41,200 nt of DNA from IMG/VR virus record IMGVR_UViG_3300045598_000011; one strand, given 5' to 3'. The notes below the pieces were generated by a model. It saw only the letters and a list, made by a program, of their open reading frames with translations. It had not been told where the DNA came from and ran no database searches. The position numbers were made by a program, and so were the translations under genes. This DNA comes from a virus. This document shows positions 27,265 through 39,576 of the stretch, piece after piece; positions within the stretch are counted from its first letter, which is position 1; every line of letters starts with the position of its first letter.

Positions 27265-27698
27265 ATAGTCAAGAGGACGACCAGACTAGCGAAGAAACAT
27301 ATCGCATGATTCTGGTCAACTGCCTGGCATATCTAGGCTTTAACGATGTAAAACAGGCAGAGCGTATCACGCTGGCTGAGTATCAACTACGGCTAGAAGC
27401 GTACGAACTGCGAGCGATTCGCAAACGTGAAGACCAGGCATATCAAGCGTGGTACAACTATGCCGTTCAGGCAACCACTGGCGGGAAAAATCCAAAGTGG
27501 AAATACGCATCTGTTCAGAAGTTTCTCAAAGATGTTGGTATTACCAAGTCGTTATCGGCGGTTAACGCCCAATATGGACGTTCTAACGGCAATGATAAGG
27601 AAAACACCACGAAACTGTTTCAACGGCGCTACAAGGAATTCAGAGAGCTTAAAAAACGTGGTCTGATTGACATGCAAGCATGGAAAGGTGGCGGTTAG
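26917..27698 (+). CDS. Tail assembly chaperone -1 frameshift fusion product (gpGT analogue)
   Basis: After a -1 slip at 27246-27252 the frame reads KKPESLDSQEDDQTSEETYRMILVN... with no stop into ORF 27306-27698. Confidence 0.7.
27246..27252 (+). promoter_or_regulatory. Programmed -1 ribosomal frameshift slippery site A_AAA_AAC
   Basis: Zero-frame codons are ACA AAA AAC. The -1 frame is open from here to 27698. Confidence 0.75.
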
Positions 27699-27699
27699 A

Positions 27700-30429
27700 A
27701 TGGCACAAGAAATGAGTATCGAGGCGATTCTTTCCGCCGTCGATCAAAATTTCACCAAAACGATGGAAGCTGCTGTTGATAGTCTTAGCAAAGTCGTTGG
27801 TCAAAGCAACCAAACGGCAAGCGCTACAACATCAGCAACTAGTTCTGTAAAGAATCTCGCAACGTCTTTGGGGCTTGTTGCTGTTGCTGGCAAGGCGTTT
27901 AGTGTTGTTAAAGATTCGATTGGCGGGGCTATTGATCGTTTCGACACGCTTAACAAGTACCCGGTTGTCATGGACGCGTTGGGGTATTCGGCACGAGATG
28001 TTGCCAAATCCAGTAAGTTAATGCAAAAGGGCATTGATGGATTGCCAACGTCATTACAAGACATCACTTCCGTTGCACAGCAGTTAGCACCATTGACGGG
28101 TAGCGCGACAAAGGCTAGCAAGTCGGCGTTAGCCCTTAACAACGCCTTTCTGGCAAGTGGGGCAAGCGTTGCTGATACTAGTCGGGGTCTGCAACAGTAT
28201 ACGCAAATGTTGTCAACTGGCAAAGTCGATATGATGAGCTACCGGACGTTAATGGAAACTATGCCTATCGCGCTGCGTAAGGTCGCAAACGCTTTTGGTT
28301 TCACGGGAAAATCTGCTGAACAGGACCTTTATAACGCACTGCAAAGCGGGCAAATATCAGTTGACCAGTTGAACGATAAATTTATCGAGCTTAACAAGGG
28401 GCAAAACGGTTTTGCACAACTTGCGAAGAAAAACAGTGCCGGGATTGCAACGAGTTTTGCGAACTTGAAAGCTAGTGTCGTAAAGAACCTTGGAAACATG
28501 CTAACTGCCATTAACAATGGTTTTAGCAAAGCTGGTTTTGGTTCTATTGCGCAAGTGCTTGACAACATGAAAGTCGGTATTAACGGAGCTTTTACCGCTA
28601 TAACGCCAATTGTTACGCAAGCAACAACGGTTATCTTAAACTCGCTGAGATCAATGTTTGATTTCGTCAACGCTAACAAAAATTGGCTTACACCGCTAGT
28701 CCTTGGAGTTGGTGCATTTGTTGGACAAATGATGTTGCTGAAGAACGCTATATCGTTTGTAGATACCGTTAAAACTTTTGTTGCGTCATTTAAAACGATC
28801 ATGCAGACCATTTCTTCAATCGAAAAGCTTAATGCTGCTTTAGCTGCTTTCGGTGGTGTGAAAATGGTAGCGATTGCGGCTATTATTGCAATTGTGGCTG
28901 CATTAGTCTATTTCTTCACTCAAACTGAAAAAGGGCGCCAAATGTGGCAATCTTTTGTTTCGTGGTTATCAAATGCATGGCAAACACTATCGACAATCGC
29001 TACATCTGTTTGGGGGAAAATTAGCGATGTTGTTAGCGTTGCTTGTAACACGGTAAAAAATGTATTGAGTGGTGTCAGCCAAACTATTCAAGGATTTATA
29101 ACCAAAATGGGCGGCATTGGCAGTATTGCTTCTACGATTGTTAGCACCTTAACCAAAATAGGATTAGCCGCATTAGGAATTTCTGGCCCTTGGGGACTTG
29201 CTGCGGGGGCTGTCATTAGTTTTGTAACAGCTTGGTTGCAAACCGGACAGCTAAACGCAGATGGTATTACTCAAGTTTTCGACCAGTTAAGCAATACTAT
29301 CACGAACGTAACTAATGCTATTGTCGCAAACATTCCGCTGATTGTCGGAATGATAACTAATGTCATTGTAGGTATTGCAAACAGCATTTCTGAGAACCTT
29401 CCACAAATCATTGCCGTTGGCACACAGATTATTACGTCGTTGACCACAGCGATTACAGCTGCGTTGCCACTACTGATAGTTGCGGGCGTACAGATTCTGA
29501 TTGCGCTTATCAATACTATAGTTGCAAGTTTGCCAATGATCATTACGGCTGGTCTGCAAATTATCATGGCACTTGCTAACGCCATTGTTACCGTATTGCC
29601 AATGCTTATTACGGCCGGCGTGCAAATCATTATGGCACTTGCTAATGCTATTATTAGCAATTTGCCACAGATCATTGAAGCTGGGGTAGAGATTCTTACA
29701 GCGTTAATTAATGGTATTGCACAAGTGCTGCCATTGCTTGTGGTTAGTGCGTTACAAATCATTGTTGCATTAGCAGGGGCTATCATTAGCAACTTACCGC
29801 AGATTATAGCGGCAGGGGTACAAATTATAGCTGCTTTGATAAAAGGTATTCTGCAAATGATGGGCGGCTTAGGCAGCGCAATGGCGCAAGTCGGGCGTAA
29901 GATCATTAATTCGGTTGCTCATATTGATTTATCGGCTAACGGTAAGGCAATTATGGACAGTCTTTTAAGAGGTCTTAAACAGGCTTGGGAAAGTGTTAAG
30001 TCATTTGTCAGTGGAATAACAAAATGGTTCCCGAAGCACAAAGGCCCTATCAGTGTCGACAGGCGTTTGCTGATTCCCGCCGGTCATGCAATTATGAACG
30101 GTCTGGGCAACGGGTTAGTTGATGGTTTTAGCGATGTTCAGAAGTCCGTTTTGGCAATGAACAAGCAGATTACTGACGCAATGCAACCTGATGTATCTGG
30201 TTTCGCTAACCGCTTGAACGGTATGGCGAGCGATGTACAATCGCGGTTTGCCGGTTCACTGACTATGCAAGACAGCACTTTGCAAATGCGAAACAACGCG
30301 CTTTTGCGCCAGATTGCAGGTAAAGATACAACGATGATTCTTGATTCTGGCGTGCTTGTCGGTGCAACAGCTGGCAGTTACGATCAACGATTAGGGCAAC
30401 GAACGGCATTAAAGGATAGGTGGAGTTAA
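27700..30429 (+). CDS. Tail tape measure protein
   Basis: 909 aa from ATG 27700 (RBS AAAGGTGG). Hydrophobic, Ala/Ile/Leu-rich repeat core. Position follows G/GT. Confidence 0.9.
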   Translation: MAQEMSIEAILSAVDQNFTKTMEAAVDSLSKVVGQSNQTASATTSATSSVKNLATSLGLVAVAGKAFSVVKDSIGGAIDRFDTLNKYPVVMDALGYSARDVAKSSKLMQKGIDGLPTSLQDITSVAQQLAPLTGSATKASKSALALNNAFLASGASVADTSRGLQQYTQMLSTGKVDMMSYRTLMETMPIALRKVANAFGFTGKSAEQDLYNALQSGQISVDQLNDKFIELNKGQNGFAQLAKKNSAGIATSFANLKASVVKNLGNMLTAINNGFSKAGFGSIAQVLDNMKVGINGAFTAITPIVTQATTVILNSLRSMFDFVNANKNWLTPLVLGVGAFVGQMMLLKNAISFVDTVKTFVASFKTIMQTISSIEKLNAALAAFGGVKMVAIAAIIAIVAALVYFFTQTEKGRQMWQSFVSWLSNAWQTLSTIATSVWGKISDVVSVACNTVKNVLSGVSQTIQGFITKMGGIGSIASTIVSTLTKIGLAALGISGPWGLAAGAVISFVTAWLQTGQLNADGITQVFDQLSNTITNVTNAIVANIPLIVGMITNVIVGIANSISENLPQIIAVGTQIITSLTTAITAALPLLIVAGVQILIALINTIVASLPMIITAGLQIIMALANAIVTVLPMLITAGVQIIMALANAIISNLPQIIEAGVEILTALINGIAQVLPLLVVSALQIIVALAGAIISNLPQIIAAGVQIIAALIKGILQMMGGLGSAMAQVGRKIINSVAHIDLSANGKAIMDSLLRGLKQAWESVKSFVSGITKWFPKHKGPISVDRRLLIPAGHAIMNGLGNGLVDGFSDVQKSVLAMNKQITDAMQPDVSGFANRLNGMASDVQSRFAGSLTMQDSTLQMRNNALLRQIAGKDTTMILDSGVLVGATAGSYDQRLGQRTALKDRWS
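29398..29850. repeat. About seven tandem ~66-nt (22-aa) repeats inside the tape measure gene
   Basis: The LPxIIxAGVQIIxALxNAIxxx units are read directly. Units at 29530-29595 and 29596-29661 are near-identical at the DNA level. Confidence 0.8.
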
Positions 30430-31190
30430 TGGAATTTATATTCAGAGATTTACCGCCAACCGATGTTGACGTTGACACGTTGCCAAACGTTGAAGGCTTC
30501 GCTTTCGCTGAATTCGATAGCGTCAAATCTGGTTGGTGGTTGACCGAACGGACAGCACCAACGCCGGAAGAACAAGAAATCACTGAAAGCGTGCCGTATC
30601 GTCAAGGCAGCTATGATTTTTCGATGATTGATAACGAGCGGTTCTTCAACAATCGAGAAATCACCTACAAGCTGTTGTATGTCGGCGAAGAGTATCACAA
30701 CCGCAAAGGCTTTGAACAAGAGCTAAAACGGCAACTAATGCCCCACAACTGGGGCAAGTTGGTTGATACTCACGAGCCGGTTTATTACTGGTGGGCCAAG
30801 TGCAAGAGCGTTGAAGTTGACGATAGCAGCGACGGTGAAACGCTTGAAGCGTCAATCGTGTTCACTGCATATCCTTATGCTTACACGAACCACAACGAAG
30901 GCGCCGACTATTGGGACGATGTATTTTTCCCGCACTGGATATGGCAACAAGTTAAGTTCAGCGTTAACGGCAGTCAGGACGTCAATGTTAAAAATATTGG
31001 CTCACGACCGGTGCTATCGTCATTCGTTGTAACAGGAAACGTCAAGGCAAAAGGAAGTTTCGGCGAAGTGTCGCTTAATGAAGGTAACTACAAGCAAACG
31101 CAAGTAGTTCTTGATATTGGCGATAACAAAATTAATTTGTCTGGGAATGGCACAATCGAGTTTGTTTTTAAGCGTGAGGAGATGGTTTAA
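30429..31190 (+). CDS. Distal tail protein (Dit, Sipho_tail-like)
   Basis: Start trimmed to MEFIFRDL, after RBS AGGTGGAG. Position is between the tape measure and Tal. Confidence 0.75.
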   Translation: MEFIFRDLPPTDVDVDTLPNVEGFAFAEFDSVKSGWWLTERTAPTPEEQEITESVPYRQGSYDFSMIDNERFFNNREITYKLLYVGEEYHNRKGFEQELKRQLMPHNWGKLVDTHEPVYYWWAKCKSVEVDDSSDGETLEASIVFTAYPYAYTNHNEGADYWDDVFFPHWIWQQVKFSVNGSQDVNVKNIGSRPVLSSFVVTGNVKAKGSFGEVSLNEGNYKQTQVVLDIGDNKINLSGNGTIEFVFKREEMV

Positions 31191-33481
31191 TGTATCGCAT
31201 TATCGGCTACAACGAACCAACCGACAAAAACGGCTTTATCGTGCTTGATCAGCGAGTAAATCGCACGGTCAGCGAAGGCAAGTTGACGATTAAAGAAACC
31301 GATATTGATGATCTGGAGTTAACAGTTAATCGTGATAACTTGCTGTTTGACAATGTTCGACCAATGCACACGCACGTTGAAGTCTACGATGACGATAAAC
31401 TGCTGTTTCGTGGCCGGGCAATCAAGCCGAAGAAAGAAATGCAATCAAGCGGACGCTTTATCAGAACGTACACGTTTGAAGACATTGAAGCGTATCTGTT
31501 AGATAGCGTTCAGCGGTTTTATGAAGCCGTTGGGTTAACCCCGAAAGAGTTTCTGCAATCGCTGCTTGATGTTCACAATAGCCAAGTACCACAGTATAAG
31601 CAATTCAAACTGCGTAACTGTAACGTTACCAACAACAAAGACGATGCTTATCGGCAAATCGACTACCCGAAAACACGGGACGCAATCAAAGACAAGCTGA
31701 TTAACGAGCTGGGCGGGTATCTGGTAACTGAGTACAAGCAGGACGGCCCGAACATGCTTGACTATGTAACTGACATCGGCAACGATCATAAGAACGATAC
31801 GCCGATTCAGTTAGCAGTTAACATGCAATCAGCAAGCCTTACGATTGACCCTACAAAGGTCATTACCCGTGTGATTCCGTTGGGTAAGCAACTTGATGCG
31901 CAAACCGTTGATGTTAGTGGTGAAAACTCAACCGTAACAACTGGCGGTGGGGCGACGACTGCTATTAATGGCGATTGGACAGAGGCCGTTAAACATGCTG
32001 CTAAGATGATGGACGTCAACCTTGACCAGAACGGGTTGAACGCTGTTTTAAGGCGTATCAATCAGGAATCTGGGGGTAGTGAAACGGTAACGAACAACTG
32101 GGACAGTAACGCACGGGCAGGGCACCCGTCAACAGGGCTGTTGCAGTATATTCAACCAACTTTTGATTCCTGGAAGGTGCAAGGCTATGAAGATATCCAC
32201 AAAGGCTTTCACCAGCTTTTAGCGTTATTTAACGATTCGAACTGGCTTGCTGATATTTCGCGTGCCGGTGGTTGGGGTCCAACTGGTACTCGACGGGTTA
32301 ATGGTCCAGTTACTGATACCACAACCGAAACACTCACAAATGGTTGGGGCTGGCCGTTCCCTAATGTTGGTGAAGGTAGTTTCAGCCAAGCGCAACGATT
32401 CGGTTATGACGGCGGTTATCGTACTAACAGTTTTCATGATGGTTTGGATTTCGGTTCGGTTGACCACCCAGGAAGTGAAGTCCATGCCATTCACGGCGGA
32501 ACGGTTGTCTTCAAAGGCTACATGGGCGGGCTTGGTAACTACGTTGTAACGCATAGTACAGACGGTTTTAACATTGTCTATCAAGAAGCGTTCAGCAGTG
32601 CCAGTCAGATTCGCGTCAATATTGGTGATAAGGTCAAAACCGGCGATGTTATCGGTTGGCGAAACACCGACCACTTGCACGTTGGTGTTACTAAGGCCGA
32701 TTTTTATGAAGCGGTCAAGAAGTCGTTCACGAACGATGGCACTTGGTTAGACCCGCAAGCACTGATTAAGAACGGCGGCGATGGCTCACAATCCGAAGAC
32801 GAGAGTAAAAAAGAAGAGGTCAGCAACTCAAATGCTGCTAGGCCAAAACTAACGATTACTAGCGTCAACGAAGGGCGCGATTATATCGATATACCAGATT
32901 TACAAAAAGAGTTTGGCATTATCAACGGCACAATCGAGTTTAACGAAGTAACCGATGCTAACGACTTAATGAACCAAGCGAAAGCATGGATTGACGCACA
33001 ACGAGTGCCAGAGAGCTGGGAAGTCAGCGCGGTTGAGCTGAACTTGCCTAACTTTGATCATTTCAAAGTTGCCGACCGGTATATGTTTATCAACCCGTAT
33101 GTAGCGCAATCGCAGTTGCTGCGAGTTGTGCAAAAAGAAGTTGATCTACTGCAACCGCACAAGTCAACGCTGACTATCGGCGATAAGTCGTTAGGGCTGA
33201 CCGATTATCAGCTAGAAACGAGCCGTCAAGCGCAAGATTTGGAGCGGGTTAAGGTTATCGTTAGCCGTGTTGCTGAGATTCAAGCGAGCGGTCAGGCGGA
33301 CACGTCAAGCACGACTACAATTGTCCAGAGTGGGGCAAGTAGCCAAGACGTAACGCAACTTAAGTTTGACATGCAGCAACTGCAATCAATCATTAACGAT
33401 AAGATACCGGCGGGCTATGTATCGCAAGCTGATTTTGACAAGTTAAAAGCCGAAGTTGATAAGCTGAAAGGGGCAAGCTAA
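31190..33481 (+). CDS. Tail-associated lysin (Tal) with lytic transglycosylase-like and M23 peptidase domains
   Basis: SLT-like is INQESGGSETVTNNWDSNARAGHPSTGLLQYIQPTF. M23 is HDGLDFGS...VHAIHGGTVVF...DHLHVGV. Confidence 0.85.
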   Translation: MYRIIGYNEPTDKNGFIVLDQRVNRTVSEGKLTIKETDIDDLELTVNRDNLLFDNVRPMHTHVEVYDDDKLLFRGRAIKPKKEMQSSGRFIRTYTFEDIEAYLLDSVQRFYEAVGLTPKEFLQSLLDVHNSQVPQYKQFKLRNCNVTNNKDDAYRQIDYPKTRDAIKDKLINELGGYLVTEYKQDGPNMLDYVTDIGNDHKNDTPIQLAVNMQSASLTIDPTKVITRVIPLGKQLDAQTVDVSGENSTVTTGGGATTAINGDWTEAVKHAAKMMDVNLDQNGLNAVLRRINQESGGSETVTNNWDSNARAGHPSTGLLQYIQPTFDSWKVQGYEDIHKGFHQLLALFNDSNWLADISRAGGWGPTGTRRVNGPVTDTTTETLTNGWGWPFPNVGEGSFSQAQRFGYDGGYRTNSFHDGLDFGSVDHPGSEVHAIHGGTVVFKGYMGGLGNYVVTHSTDGFNIVYQEAFSSASQIRVNIGDKVKTGDVIGWRNTDHLHVGVTKADFYEAVKKSFTNDGTWLDPQALIKNGGDGSQSEDESKKEEVSNSNAARPKLTITSVNEGRDYIDIPDLQKEFGIINGTIEFNEVTDANDLMNQAKAWIDAQRVPESWEVSAVELNLPNFDHFKVADRYMFINPYVAQSQLLRVVQKEVDLLQPHKSTLTIGDKSLGLTDYQLETSRQAQDLERVKVIVSRVAEIQASGQADTSSTTTIVQSGASSQDVTQLKFDMQQLQSIINDKIPAGYVSQADFDKLKAEVDKLKGAS

Positions 33482-33657
33482 TGGCAACCACCGATGATAT
33501 GAAAAGCATTGCTGAAACGATTCGCAAGGCTCAGTATGGCAAAGATGTTCGGGAAGCTATCGCAAAAGGCTTTGAGCTGTTAGCTACAAAGCAAGACAAA
33601 GTCGATGGCTTTCTGGATTCATATGGCCTTGATGAAGACACTTTGAATGAACGATGA
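33481..33657 (+). CDS. Small structural protein (58 aa) carrying the tail-fibre N-terminal motif IRKAQYGKDVREAIAKG
   Basis: The ATG overlaps the Tal stop (TAATG). Below the ORF-track cutoff. Confidence 0.55.
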   Translation: MATTDDMKSIAETIRKAQYGKDVREAIAKGFELLATKQDKVDGFLDSYGLDEDTLNER

Positions 33658-33671
33658 AAGAAGGTGAATGA

Positions 33672-35033
33672 ATGGCATTACGAGAGAAGGCACGGCTAAC
33701 GCTTGATCTAACACGTTATCAAGACCAAATCCTTGATATTAGCGGTTATTTCAAAGGCCGTGTAGGCGACACGGACGACTATCTGCCGGTATATATCACT
33801 AGCAACGCACTGCCTGTTGATATGCGGGGCTGGAAGTATGAATACGGCGGTGTTGACAATCAAGGGTATGCTCACAAGCATATCTATCCCGTTGAAGCTA
33901 ACGATCGCAACGATCAAATCGCATTGGGACGGGTAACGTTGCACTTTGACGAGCGCACTTTTAACGTGCCTGGACACTGGCAACAATTCTTCATTCGGTT
34001 CATTGGCCGTGATGGTCAGACGGTATCAACCGTTGACATGGATTTTGATGTTATCGATGATCAGTTTTTCGCACACGTTGGAGACGCTGGCCGAGATTAT
34101 ATCGAAGAATTCGAACAAATTCTCAAACAAGTAACCGATGAAGGGAACACGATTAAGGGCAAACTTGATCAGGCGGGCGAAACGTACAGTCAGGAATTCA
34201 GCGAATGGTTGGCTAAGTACAAGCAATCGTTGAACGACGCAATGGCAGAAGTGAACGACCCTAAGAATGGGTTGTACGTTCGCTATAATCAACTGCTGGA
34301 GATGACGCAACAAATCCAAGAAACGCTGAAACAAGCTCAGTTCCACGATCGAGCATGGCAATTCAGCGATGTCCCGACCATGCAAAGTTATGCTGCATTA
34401 GCTGCGAACGACCTTGCAATCACAAAAGGTTGGGATAACTACGATGACGGGCATGGCGCTGTTTGGCAAATCCGTGTTAAGCACAAGGACGAAACCCCAG
34501 ACGGTACCAACGTCATTGCACTGTCTAACGGCATGGTTGCTGAGCGTAACGCAAGTATGGTAACGGCTGATAGTCTGGAAGACTTGCTTTACGGGTACGA
34601 AATCACAATCGTGCACAATCAAGCTGATTATCCAGAACCAAAAGTTATGTATTACGAATACGCAATCGGCACTGAACCAAACGGGCTTGGGAGTGGTCCG
34701 AGCGGTTTTGGCCAAACTAACACAAAGCTAGTTCCGTGCATGGCTACGTATCCAGACGCCAACACGATTAAGGTTCGACTACCGCGTAATTTCTACCTAG
34801 ATGACGCGCCGAATTTTGAATCGAGCGCTGGTGCTTGGTATGTTCACGATGGCTACAAAACTATTAAGGTTAGTTTGGGCAACGTTAACGCGCAACTTGC
34901 ATTGACTGGCGAAGGCAAAGGCAAGAGCGCACTTGCGGGCGGTTCTGGCTATTTCAGTAAGCCAACAAGCCCTAGCGATCTGCGAGCAATCTATATTGAT
35001 GAGCACACGCAACGGCTAGAATGGCGTAACTAA
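33672..35033 (+). CDS. Baseplate upper protein (BppU-like) ending in the first two strands of an FN3 domain
   Basis: N-terminus ARLTLDLTRYQDQILDISGYFKGRVGDTDDYLPVYITSN is BppU_N-like. C-terminus PTSPSDLRAIYIDEHTQRLEWRN looks like FN3 strands A-B. Confidence 0.65.
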   Translation: MALREKARLTLDLTRYQDQILDISGYFKGRVGDTDDYLPVYITSNALPVDMRGWKYEYGGVDNQGYAHKHIYPVEANDRNDQIALGRVTLHFDERTFNVPGHWQQFFIRFIGRDGQTVSTVDMDFDVIDDQFFAHVGDAGRDYIEEFEQILKQVTDEGNTIKGKLDQAGETYSQEFSEWLAKYKQSLNDAMAEVNDPKNGLYVRYNQLLEMTQQIQETLKQAQFHDRAWQFSDVPTMQSYAALAANDLAITKGWDNYDDGHGAVWQIRVKHKDETPDGTNVIALSNGMVAERNASMVTADSLEDLLYGYEITIVHNQADYPEPKVMYYEYAIGTEPNGLGSGPSGFGQTNTKLVPCMATYPDANTIKVRLPRNFYLDDAPNFESSAGAWYVHDGYKTIKVSLGNVNAQLALTGEGKGKSALAGGSGYFSKPTSPSDLRAIYIDEHTQRLEWRN

Positions 35034-35054
35034 ACTAAGGGGGTATAGTTTAAG

Positions 35055-35564
35055 TTGAAGTATTATATCTATCAAGGTGTAGGTGAAAGCGGGGAACTAA
35101 CAAAGATTGCGGAAGTTACCGATCAGAAAACCTACACGGTAACGGGGTTGCAAGCGAAAACGACCTATCGTTTTGCAGTAAGTAGTTACAACGGACTGCG
35201 CGAAAGCGCCAAGTCTAACATTGTAACGGTAACTACCAGTCAAATCCCAGTACAATCAATCACGATTGCAATTGATAAGACCGCACTTGAAGTCGGCGGT
35301 ACTGCTAAGGCTAGCGTTACGGTAACGCCCGCCAATGAAACGGACGGGAACTACACGCTGACCAGTACCACGCCAACGGTTGCAACGGTTGATCAGTCTG
35401 GCAATATCAAGGCGGTTGCGCCTGGTACGACCACGATTAAGGCAACCATTGGCACTAAGACGTCAAACGTGGTAACGATCACGGTCTATGAAGCACTGGT
35501 CAACGTATCTAACCTTACGTCAAGCAACGTAACAACTAACAGCGTTGGTTTGAGCTGGACTTAA
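35055..35564 (+). CDS. Baseplate/fibre protein: FN3 strands C-G, a Big_2 domain, then FN3 strands A-B
   Basis: TTG start. YYIYQG...TYTVTGLQAKTTYRFAVSSYNGLRES is the FN3 C-terminal part. ITIAIDKTALEVGGTAKASVTVTP...GTTTIKATIG is Big_2. It ends NLTSSNVTTNSVGLSWT. Confidence 0.65.
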   Translation: MKYYIYQGVGESGELTKIAEVTDQKTYTVTGLQAKTTYRFAVSSYNGLRESAKSNIVTVTTSQIPVQSITIAIDKTALEVGGTAKASVTVTPANETDGNYTLTSTTPTVATVDQSGNIKAVAPGTTTIKATIGTKTSNVVTITVYEALVNVSNLTSSNVTTNSVGLSWT

Positions 35565-35579
35565 AAAGCAGGTGATGTC

Positions 35580-36032
35580 ATGCAGTATCGAGTACGCAAC
35601 GGCACCGCTTTAATCGCAACTACAAGTAGTAAGAGTTATACGGTAACGGGTTTATCGCCTAACACGGCATATACCTTAAGTGTAACGGCTTATAACGGCT
35701 TGCGAGAAAGCGAAGCAAAAAGTATCAGCGTACTGACACGAGGCATTCGCATTCGTGTTCCTACGACTTTAACAGTCGGTTCAACTGCCAATGTAACCTA
35801 TCTGGAGTATCCACTTGGTATCGTACCAATCGGCACTGAGCCTAGCGGTTTCTTTGGCGGTGGCAATCGACAAACGTTGCCGGTTAAAGTTGTCAGTGTA
35901 TCTAACGGCATTAGCACGTTAGAAATCACGAGTAAATTTAGCAACTTTTCCGACAACCAACTAATGCGAAGATTAGATGATGGTAGCTTTGGCGCATTTG
36001 ATGGCGTCAAGGCTATTTATTTTAAAAATTAA
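35580..36032 (+). CDS. Baseplate/fibre protein: FN3 strands C-G plus a C-terminal domain
   Basis: RBS AGGTGA. QYRVRNG...SYTVTGLSPNTAYTLSVTAYNGLRESE. In the same frame as the two preceding ORFs. Confidence 0.65.
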   Translation: MQYRVRNGTALIATTSSKSYTVTGLSPNTAYTLSVTAYNGLRESEAKSISVLTRGIRIRVPTTLTVGSTANVTYLEYPLGIVPIGTEPSGFFGGGNRQTLPVKVVSVSNGISTLEITSKFSNFSDNQLMRRLDDGSFGAFDGVKAIYFKN

Positions 36033-36043
36033 GAGGTGAAAAA

Positions 36044-36487
36044 ATGGACCTTACTAAAATTTTTAGCAACATGGACAAAGGGCCTGAAGCTATCCAAGCC
36101 AACTTTGAAAAGCTAAAGAGCACGTTCAAAGCAACGTATCTTTCTGGTTCTAATATGACTAACGTCAATGGTACGAACCAGAAAGATGTCAACTTCTGCT
36201 GGCGGTTAGATTTCGACAACGTTTCGCTGCTGTTTGTTAACTTGTGGATTAACGATTTCACGGGTAACGAAGCTTGGAAAAGCTATAAGAATGTGGCGAT
36301 GCCCAAATCATTCCTTAATGGAGCTACAAAAATCATAACTATTCCAGAACAGAAAACTCAAGATAATGGAGCAATCGTTAACTGGACGTTAGATACTAAT
36401 GGCCAGTTGTCAGTTGCTACACGTGGTACCGCAATCGGTGAACATGTCGGGATTGGGTTCGTCGGCATGTTTCTTTTGTTCCAATAA
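36044..36487 (+). CDS. Hypothetical tail/baseplate-associated protein
   Basis: 147 aa, RBS AGAGGTGA. Assigned from position only. Confidence 0.55.
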   Translation: MDLTKIFSNMDKGPEAIQANFEKLKSTFKATYLSGSNMTNVNGTNQKDVNFCWRLDFDNVSLLFVNLWINDFTGNEAWKSYKNVAMPKSFLNGATKIITIPEQKTQDNGAIVNWTLDTNGQLSVATRGTAIGEHVGIGFVGMFLLFQ

Positions 36488-38514: not shown

Positions 38515-39576
38515 ATGGAACAATTAATTTTTTATCCACGTGTCATCAAAGTCGATGACACAGACCGCACTATTAACGTCATAGCGCTTGTTAATGATGA
38601 ACGGCTAGAATTTACCGATGACATGACTTACACGCTGAAACTGGGCAATCAGAGCGGTTATATTAAGGATATAGCTTTAACCCAACCGGCATTTAGCAGT
38701 CAGAAACTTAAAGGCTTGCCGTCTGATATGTATACCGCCGAGCTTTGGGTTACGAATGGCGACAAAACAAGAATCTATCCTAACAAAGATAAGGGCTATC
38801 TGGGATTGCAAGCTAATATAACGGCAATGGTTGGCGAAGTGCTGCCAACACTAACAGTTAGCGAAATCAAAGCTGAAATCGAATCTAAGTTGAAAAACGT
38901 GGGTAGCGGTGGCACTGGTGAAAAAGGAAATGACGGCAAAAGCGCATATCAAATCTGGCTTGATGCGGGCAACAAGGGTACGCAACAAGACTTTCTGAAT
39001 AGCTTGAAAGTTAAAGGCGATCCCGGCAGTAACGGAAACGATGGCAAGAGTGCATATCAAATCTGGCTTGATGCGGGCAACAGCGGAACAGAGCAAGACT
39101 TTATCAACAGTCTTAAGGCGCCGAGTGTCGCACCTTCAAAACGTGCTGCGACAAGCCTTTTTGTTGATATGAACGATTCAAAAAATATCATAGGTCGGTT
39201 CGACAATGGCTGTTGGGTTGAAATGCGGACAATGGCAAGCTGGGTCCCGTTGTATGCAACTGGTTCAGCTGGCTATGGTAGTGTAACTTTACAATCGTTT
39301 GTGCACGATCAATGCTGGTGTAACGTTCTATCCTATATCAACGGTTTTATGACCGTAAGCGCAATGCAAAAAGCTACACCAGCGCAGTTCGAGTTGTGGA
39401 AGTCCTGCGTGGTGCATGAACCATATGCTGATGTTGATCAGTACGATTGGAGCGCTTGCCGTATCACGTCAACCGGTAGCGATGTCGGCGAAGTCGATTT
39501 TGCAAAAATGATGTTTGCGGTCGGCTTGTTCAGCGAAAAAACGATCTTATCTTTGGGTGCAGTTAAAAAATCATAG
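38515..39576 (+). CDS. Post-lysis accessory protein with a duplicated fibre-type motif GNDGKSAYQIWLDAGNxGTxQDFxNSLK
   Basis: 353 aa, RBS AAGGGAG, its own terminators on both sides. Cys/Trp-rich C-terminal domain. Confidence 0.7.
   Translation: MEQLIFYPRVIKVDDTDRTINVIALVNDERLEFTDDMTYTLKLGNQSGYIKDIALTQPAFSSQKLKGLPSDMYTAELWVTNGDKTRIYPNKDKGYLGLQANITAMVGEVLPTLTVSEIKAEIESKLKNVGSGGTGEKGNDGKSAYQIWLDAGNKGTQQDFLNSLKVKGDPGSNGNDGKSAYQIWLDAGNSGTEQDFINSLKAPSVAPSKRAATSLFVDMNDSKNIIGRFDNGCWVEMRTMASWVPLYATGSAGYGSVTLQSFVHDQCWCNVLSYINGFMTVSAMQKATPAQFELWKSCVVHEPYADVDQYDWSACRITSTGSDVGEVDFAKMMFAVGLFSEKTILSLGAVKKS
38926..39130. repeat. Tandem duplication with a 108-bp period inside 38515-39576
   Basis: CATATCAAATCTGGCTTGATGCGGGCAACA occurs from 38945 and again from 39053. 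The flanks have diverged. Confidence 0.85.

Follow-up and report, generated by a model that had tools for sequence, protein, structure and literature searches.

Split FN3 domains at the gene boundaries of a BppU-type baseplate locus in a Limosilactobacillus phage: a putative joint between consecutive baseplate proteins

The closest described system to the locus considered here is the TP901-1/Tuc2009 baseplate tripod, which is built of the proteins BppU, BppA, and BppL (PDB 3u6x, 4v96, and 5e7t). The domain that holds the BppL trimers in TP901-1 ORF48 is BppU_IgG (PDB 3u6x and 4v96), and BppA of Tuc2009 is an accessory protein that decorates BppU (PMC4742702). The IMG/VR virus record IMGVR_UViG_3300045598_000011 (41,200 nt; this whole stretch is hereafter called the window) represents a temperate, almost complete Limosilactobacillus (mucosae-type) siphophage, and its baseplate locus, to judge from every sequence feature tested, belongs to the BppU/BppL (TP901-1 and Tuc2009-type) family. 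Three consecutive open reading frames (ORFs) of this locus, namely ORF1 (the BppU-family protein), ORF2, and ORF3, lie in a common reading frame separated by stops (TAA 35031, TAG 35046, and TAA 35562), and a fibronectin type III (FN3) domain is interrupted at each of the two boundaries between them (junctions 1 and 2). We present evidence that ORF1, ORF2, and ORF3 are, as far as can be read from the sequence, three separately translated baseplate proteins, and that the FN3 halves at their termini probably pair in trans as an assembly mechanism, linking BppU to ORF2 and ORF2 to ORF3.

In the Pfam analysis, the N-terminal part (head) of ORF2 matched positions 36-82 of the 84-position fn3 profile PF00041 and was followed by Big_2, and the head of ORF3 matched positions 37-79 and was followed by BppU_IgG. 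The C-terminal part (tail) of ORF1 alone gave no fn3 match in Pfam, and the ORF2 tail alone gave a weak one (positions 3-21). When tail and head were fused conceptually, the matches extended over fn3 positions 2-83 at junction 1 and 3-79 at junction 2, with scores of 36.0 and 52.0 bits compared with 28.0 and 31.4 bits for the respective heads alone, and the scores rose further if the spacer codons were left in as a loop. Because the conceptual fusions match the whole fn3 profile, both FN3 domains are cut between strands B and C, i.e. in the B-C loop, as an earlier prediction made from the sequence alone (hereafter the original prediction) had placed them; the ORF coordinates, shared frame, stops, and Shine-Dalgarno (SD)-like motifs given there were also found to be correct when the sequence was re-read. 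No single polypeptide contains the seven strands, each ORF carrying just positions 3-21 or 36-83, and tail and head jointly yielded a complete fn3 match at both junctions and a seven-strand model in the junction 2 surrogate described below.

The survey of related loci covered 59 genome or viral loci and 45 metagenome loci. Both break points are kept in about 100 independent loci, in which ORF1 is 48-98% identical, and which derive from Limosilactobacillus, Latilactobacillus, and unassigned metagenome contigs. More than 200 ORF1 homologues, found in prophages of L. reuteri, vaginalis, mucosae, and others, are all 444-470 amino acids long (53-96% identical among those listed) and all terminate 0-3 residues past the motif ...GYFSKPTSPSDLRAVYIDEHTQRLLWRD, and 21 of the last 28 ORF1 columns in the alignment of homologues are at least 90% conserved. 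The relatives of ORF2 form more than 120 clusters at 90% identity, almost all of exactly 169 amino acids, and the ORF1 tail is present on none of these clusters; the exhaustive representative search with ORF2 was dominated by giant multi-Big_2 proteins and contained two ORF2-type representatives. ORF3 relatives all start with M-Q/S/K-Y-R/K-I/V, and P0123-P0139 begin at the same point. A stop lies at most about a dozen codons before every ORF2-type head in the 59 and 45 loci, and a fused version was found neither there nor among the 120 best matches listed for each of the two protein searches, so that the search for fused versions and for the same break point suggested in the original prediction yielded the latter alone. 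An apparent ORF2-ORF3 fusion, P0121, reads SWDWWWMQYR; a gene caller working with a different code rendered TGA TGA TGA as Trp and thereby mis-called ORF2 and ORF3 as one 323-aa 'protein'. A frameshift fusion of ORF1 and ORF2 in locus L001, the L. mucosae DSM 13345 prophage, was also ruled out, as the ORF2-frame stop overlaps the last ORF1 codons when the sequence is read by hand.

Both cuts are shared by a divergent lineage (L085/L149/L150), in which the BppU tail ends ...INLKVTSIDDTTDRLDWDTAEGEK before the stop, the ORF2 head reads MAISYIVYQKEG..., and the ORF3 head reads MAISYKIYNG.... They are also present in Latilactobacillus phage TMW 1.1381 P1, whose ORF2 is annotated as 'major tail protein'; the paper on this phage contains no proteomics and reports no assembled virions in the lysate, and is not evidence either way. 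The numbers of variable sites at the first, second, and third codon positions were 18, 9, and 24 in the ORF1 tail and 17, 8, and 23 in the ORF2 tail, respectively. The preponderance of variable sites at third codon positions and the high conservation of the columns indicate that the tails are under purifying selection. The recurrence of both cuts in every related locus examined is, on this comparative evidence, far beyond chance, and we regard it as virtually certain that the split cistrons are real and selected. The occurrence of the same boundaries in about 100 loci agrees with the earlier proposal that these are evolved cistron boundaries rather than fresh nonsense mutations.

The junctions themselves are variable. 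Spacers of 3, 4, 6, 7, 17, 18, 20, or 21 nt, giving all three frames, occur at junction 1 in relatives, and spacers of 5, 6, 8, 9, 12, 14, 15, or 18 nt, giving frames 0 and 2, occur at junction 2, where some consist of three TGA codons. In the metagenome set, ORF2 is in frame at junction 1 in 18 of 42 loci and out of frame in the other 24. Relatives with 96-98% identical ORF1 proteins have a 20- or 17-nt junction 1 spacer and ORF2 out of frame, and the window differs from its nearest relatives (20 nt) by a single extra T. Since the 17- and 20-nt spacers of the nearest relatives put ORF2 out of frame, the common frame and the 'double stop' at junction 1 of the window are incidental, and the weight that had initially been placed on the shared reading frame was misplaced. 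An SD-like motif and a start codon are kept in every junction variant: in the window, AAGGGGG lies 11 nt 5' of TTG 35055; the ORF2 start codon position is occupied by ATG, TTG, GTG, or CTG in relatives; and in short-spacer lineages the terminal ORF1 codons for Trp-Arg, TGGAGG(G), form the SD. Translational coupling is suggested by the shortness of the spacers, each of which comes with an SD-like motif and a start codon. As the frames vary, multiple stops are present, and each downstream ORF has its own SD-like motif and start, neither read-through nor frame-dependent recoding maintains the arrangement. Gene callers often skip ORF2, which is left uncalled where its start is CTG (L082:5363-5904 and L083:2458-2999). 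ORF2 matches phrog_341, and the label 'major tail protein' carried by ORF2-type proteins in PHROG 341 and in the GenBank record is probably a misnomer.

Because about a hundred related phages share the split, a plug-and-socket joint is its most likely explanation. According to this proposal, ORF1 and ORF2 would each end in a beta-hairpin of ~22-24 residues (FN3 strands A-B), and the hairpin of one protein would complete the five-strand half (C-C'-E-F-G) of the next to form a full, non-covalent FN3 sandwich. A chain would be formed that leads from BppU (ORF1) through a flexible FN3-Big_2-FN3 arm (ORF2) to a distal second BppU_IgG (ORF3). The BppU_IgG of ORF1 would be its own BppL holder, and the arm would terminate with ORF3 as a second holder or, in other phages, with an enzyme; we infer that ORF3 binds the BppL-like ORF4, which the distal BppU_IgG could hold in the same way as that of ORF1. 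Translational coupling would allow the partners to be made side by side and, as we also infer, in similar amounts. The split would make the FN3 domain a universal joint, whose head half can bear either Big_2 and another plug or a GH66 enzyme, and the whole add-on could be lost. Fragments of FN3 domains have been found experimentally to re-associate with high affinity, according to the work cited in PMC11666773 (Dutta et al. 2005).

AlphaFold2 was run on P0121, i.e. the ORF2-WWW-ORF3 polypeptide of a relative, which serves as a covalently joined surrogate for junction 2 only. The alignment was shallow, with four ORF2-type rows that were correctly registered by trimming them after MAFFT had aligned ORF3 heads to the ORF2 head, and strand pairing was read from DSSP and the predicted local distance difference test (pLDDT) scores, not from contacts. 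The ORF2 tail of the surrogate (residues 151-170) was modelled with a pLDDT of 92 and strands at 155-157 and 164-167, and the adjoining head (residues 174-224) with a pLDDT of 87-96 and strands at 174-179, 182-187, 191-194, 202-210, and 219-224. The total of seven strands equals the FN3 count. At equal alignment depth, Big_2 (about residues 63-145) reached a pLDDT of 41-77, and the unpartnered N-terminal half FN3 (residues 1-60) reached 62-78. This model supports complementarity of the halves at junction 2. In an earlier AlphaFold2 run with an alignment covering the ORF3 part only, the ORF2 tail and Big_2 had a pLDDT of about 30, which is uninformative on the junction. The best PDB matches of the surrogate in Foldseek were tandem FN3 arrays, by which the junction is not resolved.

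The cargo downstream of the half-domains is variable. The ORF2-type head (MKYYIYQG...ESAKSNIVTV) also begins proteins of 548 and 631 amino acids, the remainder of which is a GH66 glycoside hydrolase; no plug is present at the end of these half-FN3-GH66 proteins (P0141, L010, L048, L059, L066, L151, L153, and L154), which come after a BppU that has the usual tail and are candidate exopolysaccharide-degrading tail accessories. In L. reuteri-type prophages (L010:6001-8502, L048, L059, L066, L151, L153, and L154), the half-FN3-GH66 gene and then a GDSL esterase/lipase gene stand in place of ORF2 and ORF3; L010 has both its BppU gene and its GH66 gene split in two. In most ORF3 relatives, the BppU_IgG region is interrupted by a variable module of about 130-180 residues, and P0123 and P0124 have an insertion resembling a carbohydrate-binding module inside the FN3 half instead of the BppU_IgG module. 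A deletion of ~810 bp in 11 loci (L065, L037, L052, L057, L058, L060-L064, and L071) extends from the last ORF1 codons to the middle of ORF3 and gives the ORF1 ending ...ERLERK followed by a stop; because it is found with different receptor-binding protein genes, the deletion allele must have spread. In these loci, 180 nt of untranslated ORF3 3' remnant (...KRNIQAKVIS...YRAIYFRQ and a stop) precede the receptor-binding protein gene (L065:6348-6527). From the GH66 cargo, the deletions, and the loci in which ORF1 leads directly to the receptor-binding protein gene, it follows that ORF2 and ORF3 are an optional add-on and that the half-FN3 is the constant adaptor. The suggestion that ORF2 is a shuffling cassette is thus sustained in part: ORF2 and ORF3 are cleanly deleted in some loci and GH66 replaces Big_2 in others, but in the loci surveyed nothing pointed to an intact FN3 loop that had recently received an insertion, and a fused ancestor was not found.

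Three other explanations of the split were weighed against the plug-and-socket joint. In-frame stops inside a recognizable domain are a classic sign of nonsense mutation, and real decay does occur in some relatives, i.e. BppU is split in L010 and L078 and ORF2 or ORF3 is truncated in L011 and L025. However, lineage-specific stops and loss of length or conservation, by which a pseudogene would be recognized, were not what was seen: identical boundaries recur in about 100 independent assemblies from several host species, ORF lengths are intact and invariant, the flanking halves are conserved around differing stops and spacers, and substitutions show a bias towards third positions. We therefore consider a decaying fibre pseudogene, or an assembly or sequencing error, to be extremely improbable; the original prediction had named both as possible refutations, and both are contradicted by these data. 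It is also very improbable that stop-codon read-through or other recoding produces one long BppU-FN3-Big_2-FN3-BppU_IgG protein and that the in-frame arrangement is functional. The three ORFs share a frame here, the spacer lengths would suit B-C loops, and junction 2 is in frame in most lineages; against this, ORF2 is out of frame at junction 1 in the nearest relatives and in the 24 metagenome loci mentioned above, at least nine loci have 5- or 8-nt junction 2 spacers, which break the frame, and others carry TGA TGA TGA there, junction 1 of the window has two stops, and every variant provides an SD-like motif and start of its own. Read-through, which had been listed as an option, is thus excluded as a requirement.

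The remaining alternative accepts separate virion proteins but leaves their terminal halves unpaired. The heads would be self-sufficient, truncated immunoglobulin (Ig)-like folds; the hairpins would add a strand pair to BppU_IgG or Big_2, trimerise, or persist as leftovers that supply an SD; and any association would occur via other surfaces. Several observations favour this alternative and weigh against pairing in trans. In the earlier AlphaFold2 run, a head half without its partner still received a pLDDT of 76-85, and since it is modelled with fair confidence, the five-strand half may be stable alone. An intact ORF1 tail without ORF2 and ORF3 persists in six loci (L021, L027-29, L033, and L036), where the receptor-binding protein gene is next, indicating that an unpaired ORF1 tail is tolerated, and in several lineages the final Trp-Arg codons also provide an SD. 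In addition, the ORF1 tail adds just about 8 bits to the junction 1 fn3 score, the AlphaFold2 support comes from a covalent surrogate of a relative with a shallow alignment, and a split FN3 joint in phage baseplates was not found described in the literature searched. On the other side, the SD role covers the last 2-3 codons and not the ~25 conserved residues with mostly third-position variation, the whole fn3 profile is covered without a break by tail plus head, joined by a loop of the correct length, the tail strands reach a pLDDT of 92 only beside the head, and the identical 2+5 cut is found at two junctions and in distant lineages. On balance, we consider unpaired halves rather unlikely and favour pairing in trans. 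The putative chaining of baseplate subunits by trans reconstitution, one of the options in the original prediction, is therefore the best-supported of these (conserved halves, full fn3 match, AlphaFold2 surrogate, and interchangeable cargo).

The features of the locus are listed in Table 1. ORF1 shares 96% identity with a protein from a prophage of L. mucosae DSM 13345, and no DNA match for positions 33600-36100 of the window was obtained among deposited phages in either the near or the distant search mode. Residues 7-156 of ORF1 were assigned to BppU_N (PF10651) by Pfam with 27.0 bits (cut-off, 23.1), and BppU_IgG (PF18667) scored 138 bits in ORF1 and 98 bits in ORF3. In the PDB sequence search, ORF1 matched residues 192-261 of TP901-1 ORF48 and the Tuc2009 chain in 5e7t, the BppU_IgG matches (3u6x, 4v96, and 5e7t) having expectation (E) values of 6e-5 to 2e-4. 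The position of ORF1, which follows Dit and Tal and precedes a BppL-type receptor-binding protein, is that of the BppU family. As a single-sequence PDB query ORF4 gave no match and a profile of the N-terminus was needed; the profile of ORF4-type N-termini matched the N-terminus of BppL of Tuc2009 (5e7f, E 4.5e-9) and of TP901-1 (3u6x and 4v96, E about 1e-4). ORF4 and its equivalents in about 45 loci have a nearly invariant N-terminus of 25-30 residues (...IFSGMxxGPExIxxNF...) and a C-terminal domain that is unrelated between phages, and the ORF4-type gene is a classic host-range cassette. Elsewhere in the window, the lysin gene is followed by a 353-aa ORF (38515-39576) in which the repeat GNDGKSAYQIWLDAGN(K/S)GT(Q/E)QDF(L/I)NSLK occurs in two near-identical copies. 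This ORF matches PHROGs of tail fibres (phrog_4440, E 1e-25) and appears to be a tail-fibre-like gene that lies apart from the tail module, adjoining the prophage end.

Table 1. Features of the baseplate locus, with positions in the window
Feature	Position	Strand	Basis or content
Tape measure	27667-30429		Upstream of Dit-like protein
Dit-like protein	30420-31190	+	Pfam Sipho_tail (weak)
Tal with M23 peptidase	31190-33481	+	Pfam Prophage_tail and Peptidase_M23; directly upstream of ORF1
ORF1, BppU-family baseplate upper protein, 453 aa	33672-35033	+	BppU_N, coiled region, BppU_IgG, Gly/Ala/Ser-rich linker, FN3 strands A-B
BppU_IgG of ORF1, residues 307-402	34590-34877	+	PF18667 and PDB sequence match
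ORF1 tail KPTSPSDLRAIYIDEHTQRLEWRN, FN3 strands A and B, proposed junction 1 'plug'	34959-35030	+	fn3 profile of fusion, column conservation
Junction 1	35031-35054	+	TAA stop, 21-nt spacer, SD-like AAGGGGG 35037-35043, in-frame TAG 35046-35048
ORF2, 169 aa, TTG start	35055-35564	+	FN3 strands C-G, Big_2, FN3 strands A-B (Pfam)
ORF2 head, residues 1-60, FN3 strands C-C'-E-F-G, proposed junction 1 'socket'	35055-35234	+	Pfam fn3
ORF2 tail LVNVSNLTSSNVTTNSVGLSWT, FN3 strands A and B, proposed junction 2 'plug'	35496-35561	+	fn3 positions 3-21, surrogate model
Junction 2	35562-35579	+	TAA stop, 15-nt spacer, SD AGGTGAT 35570-35576, then ATG 35580
ORF3, 150 aa	35580-36032	+	FN3 strands C-G (residues 1-53), second BppU_IgG (residues 54-150)
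ORF4, BppL-like receptor-binding protein	36044-36487	+	Conserved N-terminal 30 aa, variable C-terminal domain

A wider reading, which we put forward tentatively and think possible rather than probable, is that split-FN3 complementation is a general, portable docking system of phages infecting Gram-positive bacteria. An A-B hairpin on a core virion protein would be a plug for any protein that starts with the five-strand half, and in some phages the plug would be reachable only by a programmed frameshift, whose rate would set the number of docking sites per virion. The cargo seen on the five-strand half so far comprises Big_2 arms, the GH66 glycosidase, the second BppU_IgG (probably a holder for a receptor-binding protein), and capsid decoration proteins. 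The last of these concern L084:1400-1660 and L087:2330-2510, where the major capsid gene ends ...ACT/ACA CCC TAA (L084:1543 and L087:2405), the +1 frame encodes a 22-residue FN3 A-B hairpin before a stop (PKTPVNLTGDPTETTVKLTWE and PNPPVNLTGNPTENIAELKWE, respectively), and the next gene, which has an SD of its own, begins with FN3 strands C-G and Big_2. This arrangement looks like a PSA-type CCC-stop +1 frameshift that would supply a docking plug for a capsid decoration protein. In L086:2330-2500 (Latilactobacillus phage TMW 1.1381 P1, OQ240258.1), L148, and L155, a BppU-like gene ends ...GDQSQP and a stop, and an FN3 A-B hairpin, PKPTVEAPKFLVVSPVNATTTKLDWV followed by a stop, is encoded in the -1 frame and overlaps the final codons of BppU. 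Both the arrangement and the DNA GGTGACCAAAGCCAACCGTAGAGGCTCC have been conserved across these three independent sources, and the substitutions present leave the hairpin frame open; a canonical slippery heptamer was not seen at this -1-frame hairpin in the three loci.

If the halves pair in trans, the joint would be a natural split-domain connector in virion assembly, and the attachment of optional host-recognition modules would differ from that in Tuc2009 and TP901-1, for which the BppU-BppA and BppU-BppL contacts have been solved. The joint would also explain how a Big_2 arm, a GH66 enzyme, or an extra holder can be swapped or lost without change to the core BppU gene, and it would offer a compact genetic tag and socket for engineering phage host range. 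For annotation, the points of concern are the skipping of ORF2, the fusion of ORF2 and ORF3 by reading TGA as Trp, the 'major tail protein' labels, and weak or partial fn3 hits in domain scans.

Several known systems resemble the proposed joint in part. In engineered FN3 complementation and in SpyTag/SpyCatcher, a split-domain tag in which SpyTag forms a covalent bond, two fragments of one beta-sandwich associate tightly and join proteins, as would be the case here; those are laboratory constructs, whereas the present case would be a natural, conserved use in virion assembly. In chaperone-usher pili, an incomplete Ig-like sandwich is completed by strands of the neighbouring subunit to form an ordered chain; a pilin is short of one strand (6+1), and assembly depends on a chaperone and an usher. 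An Ig-like fold completed in trans would be common to both, here on the basis of the covalent surrogate model and conservation, but the cut in the present locus is a 2+5 cut in the FN3 B-C loop, the donor is C-terminal, no chaperone is evident, and there is no homology; no Pfam match to a pilin, chaperone, or usher was found in or around the locus. Ig-like domains are also added to phage structural proteins by programmed frameshifting, as reportedly described by Fraser and co-workers in 2006. In such extensions, e.g. those of SPP1 gp17.1*, Listeria PSA Cps/Tsh, and Lactobacillus A2, the added part is without its own start and the frame relation is fixed. The present locus is similar in that the coding sequence of FN3/Big_2 decorations comes shortly after a structural gene's stop and in the phrog_341 match of ORF2, but differs in that multiple stops are present, the frame relation is not fixed (frames 0, 1, and 2 at junction 1 and frames 0 and 2 at junction 2), and each downstream piece has its own SD-like motif and start.

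The TP901-1/Tuc2009 baseplate shares with this locus BppU_N and BppU_IgG (in ORF1), the BppL N-terminal motif (in ORF4), the gene order Dit-Tal-BppU-...-BppL, and, in the case of Tuc2009, an optional accessory protein on BppU, as is BppA. Here, the second BppU_IgG is located on a separate protein, and the accessory proteins appear to dock on a C-terminal hairpin via a split FN3 domain; it is thus in the apparent mode of attachment of its accessory proteins that this locus would differ from the known BppU/BppL baseplates.

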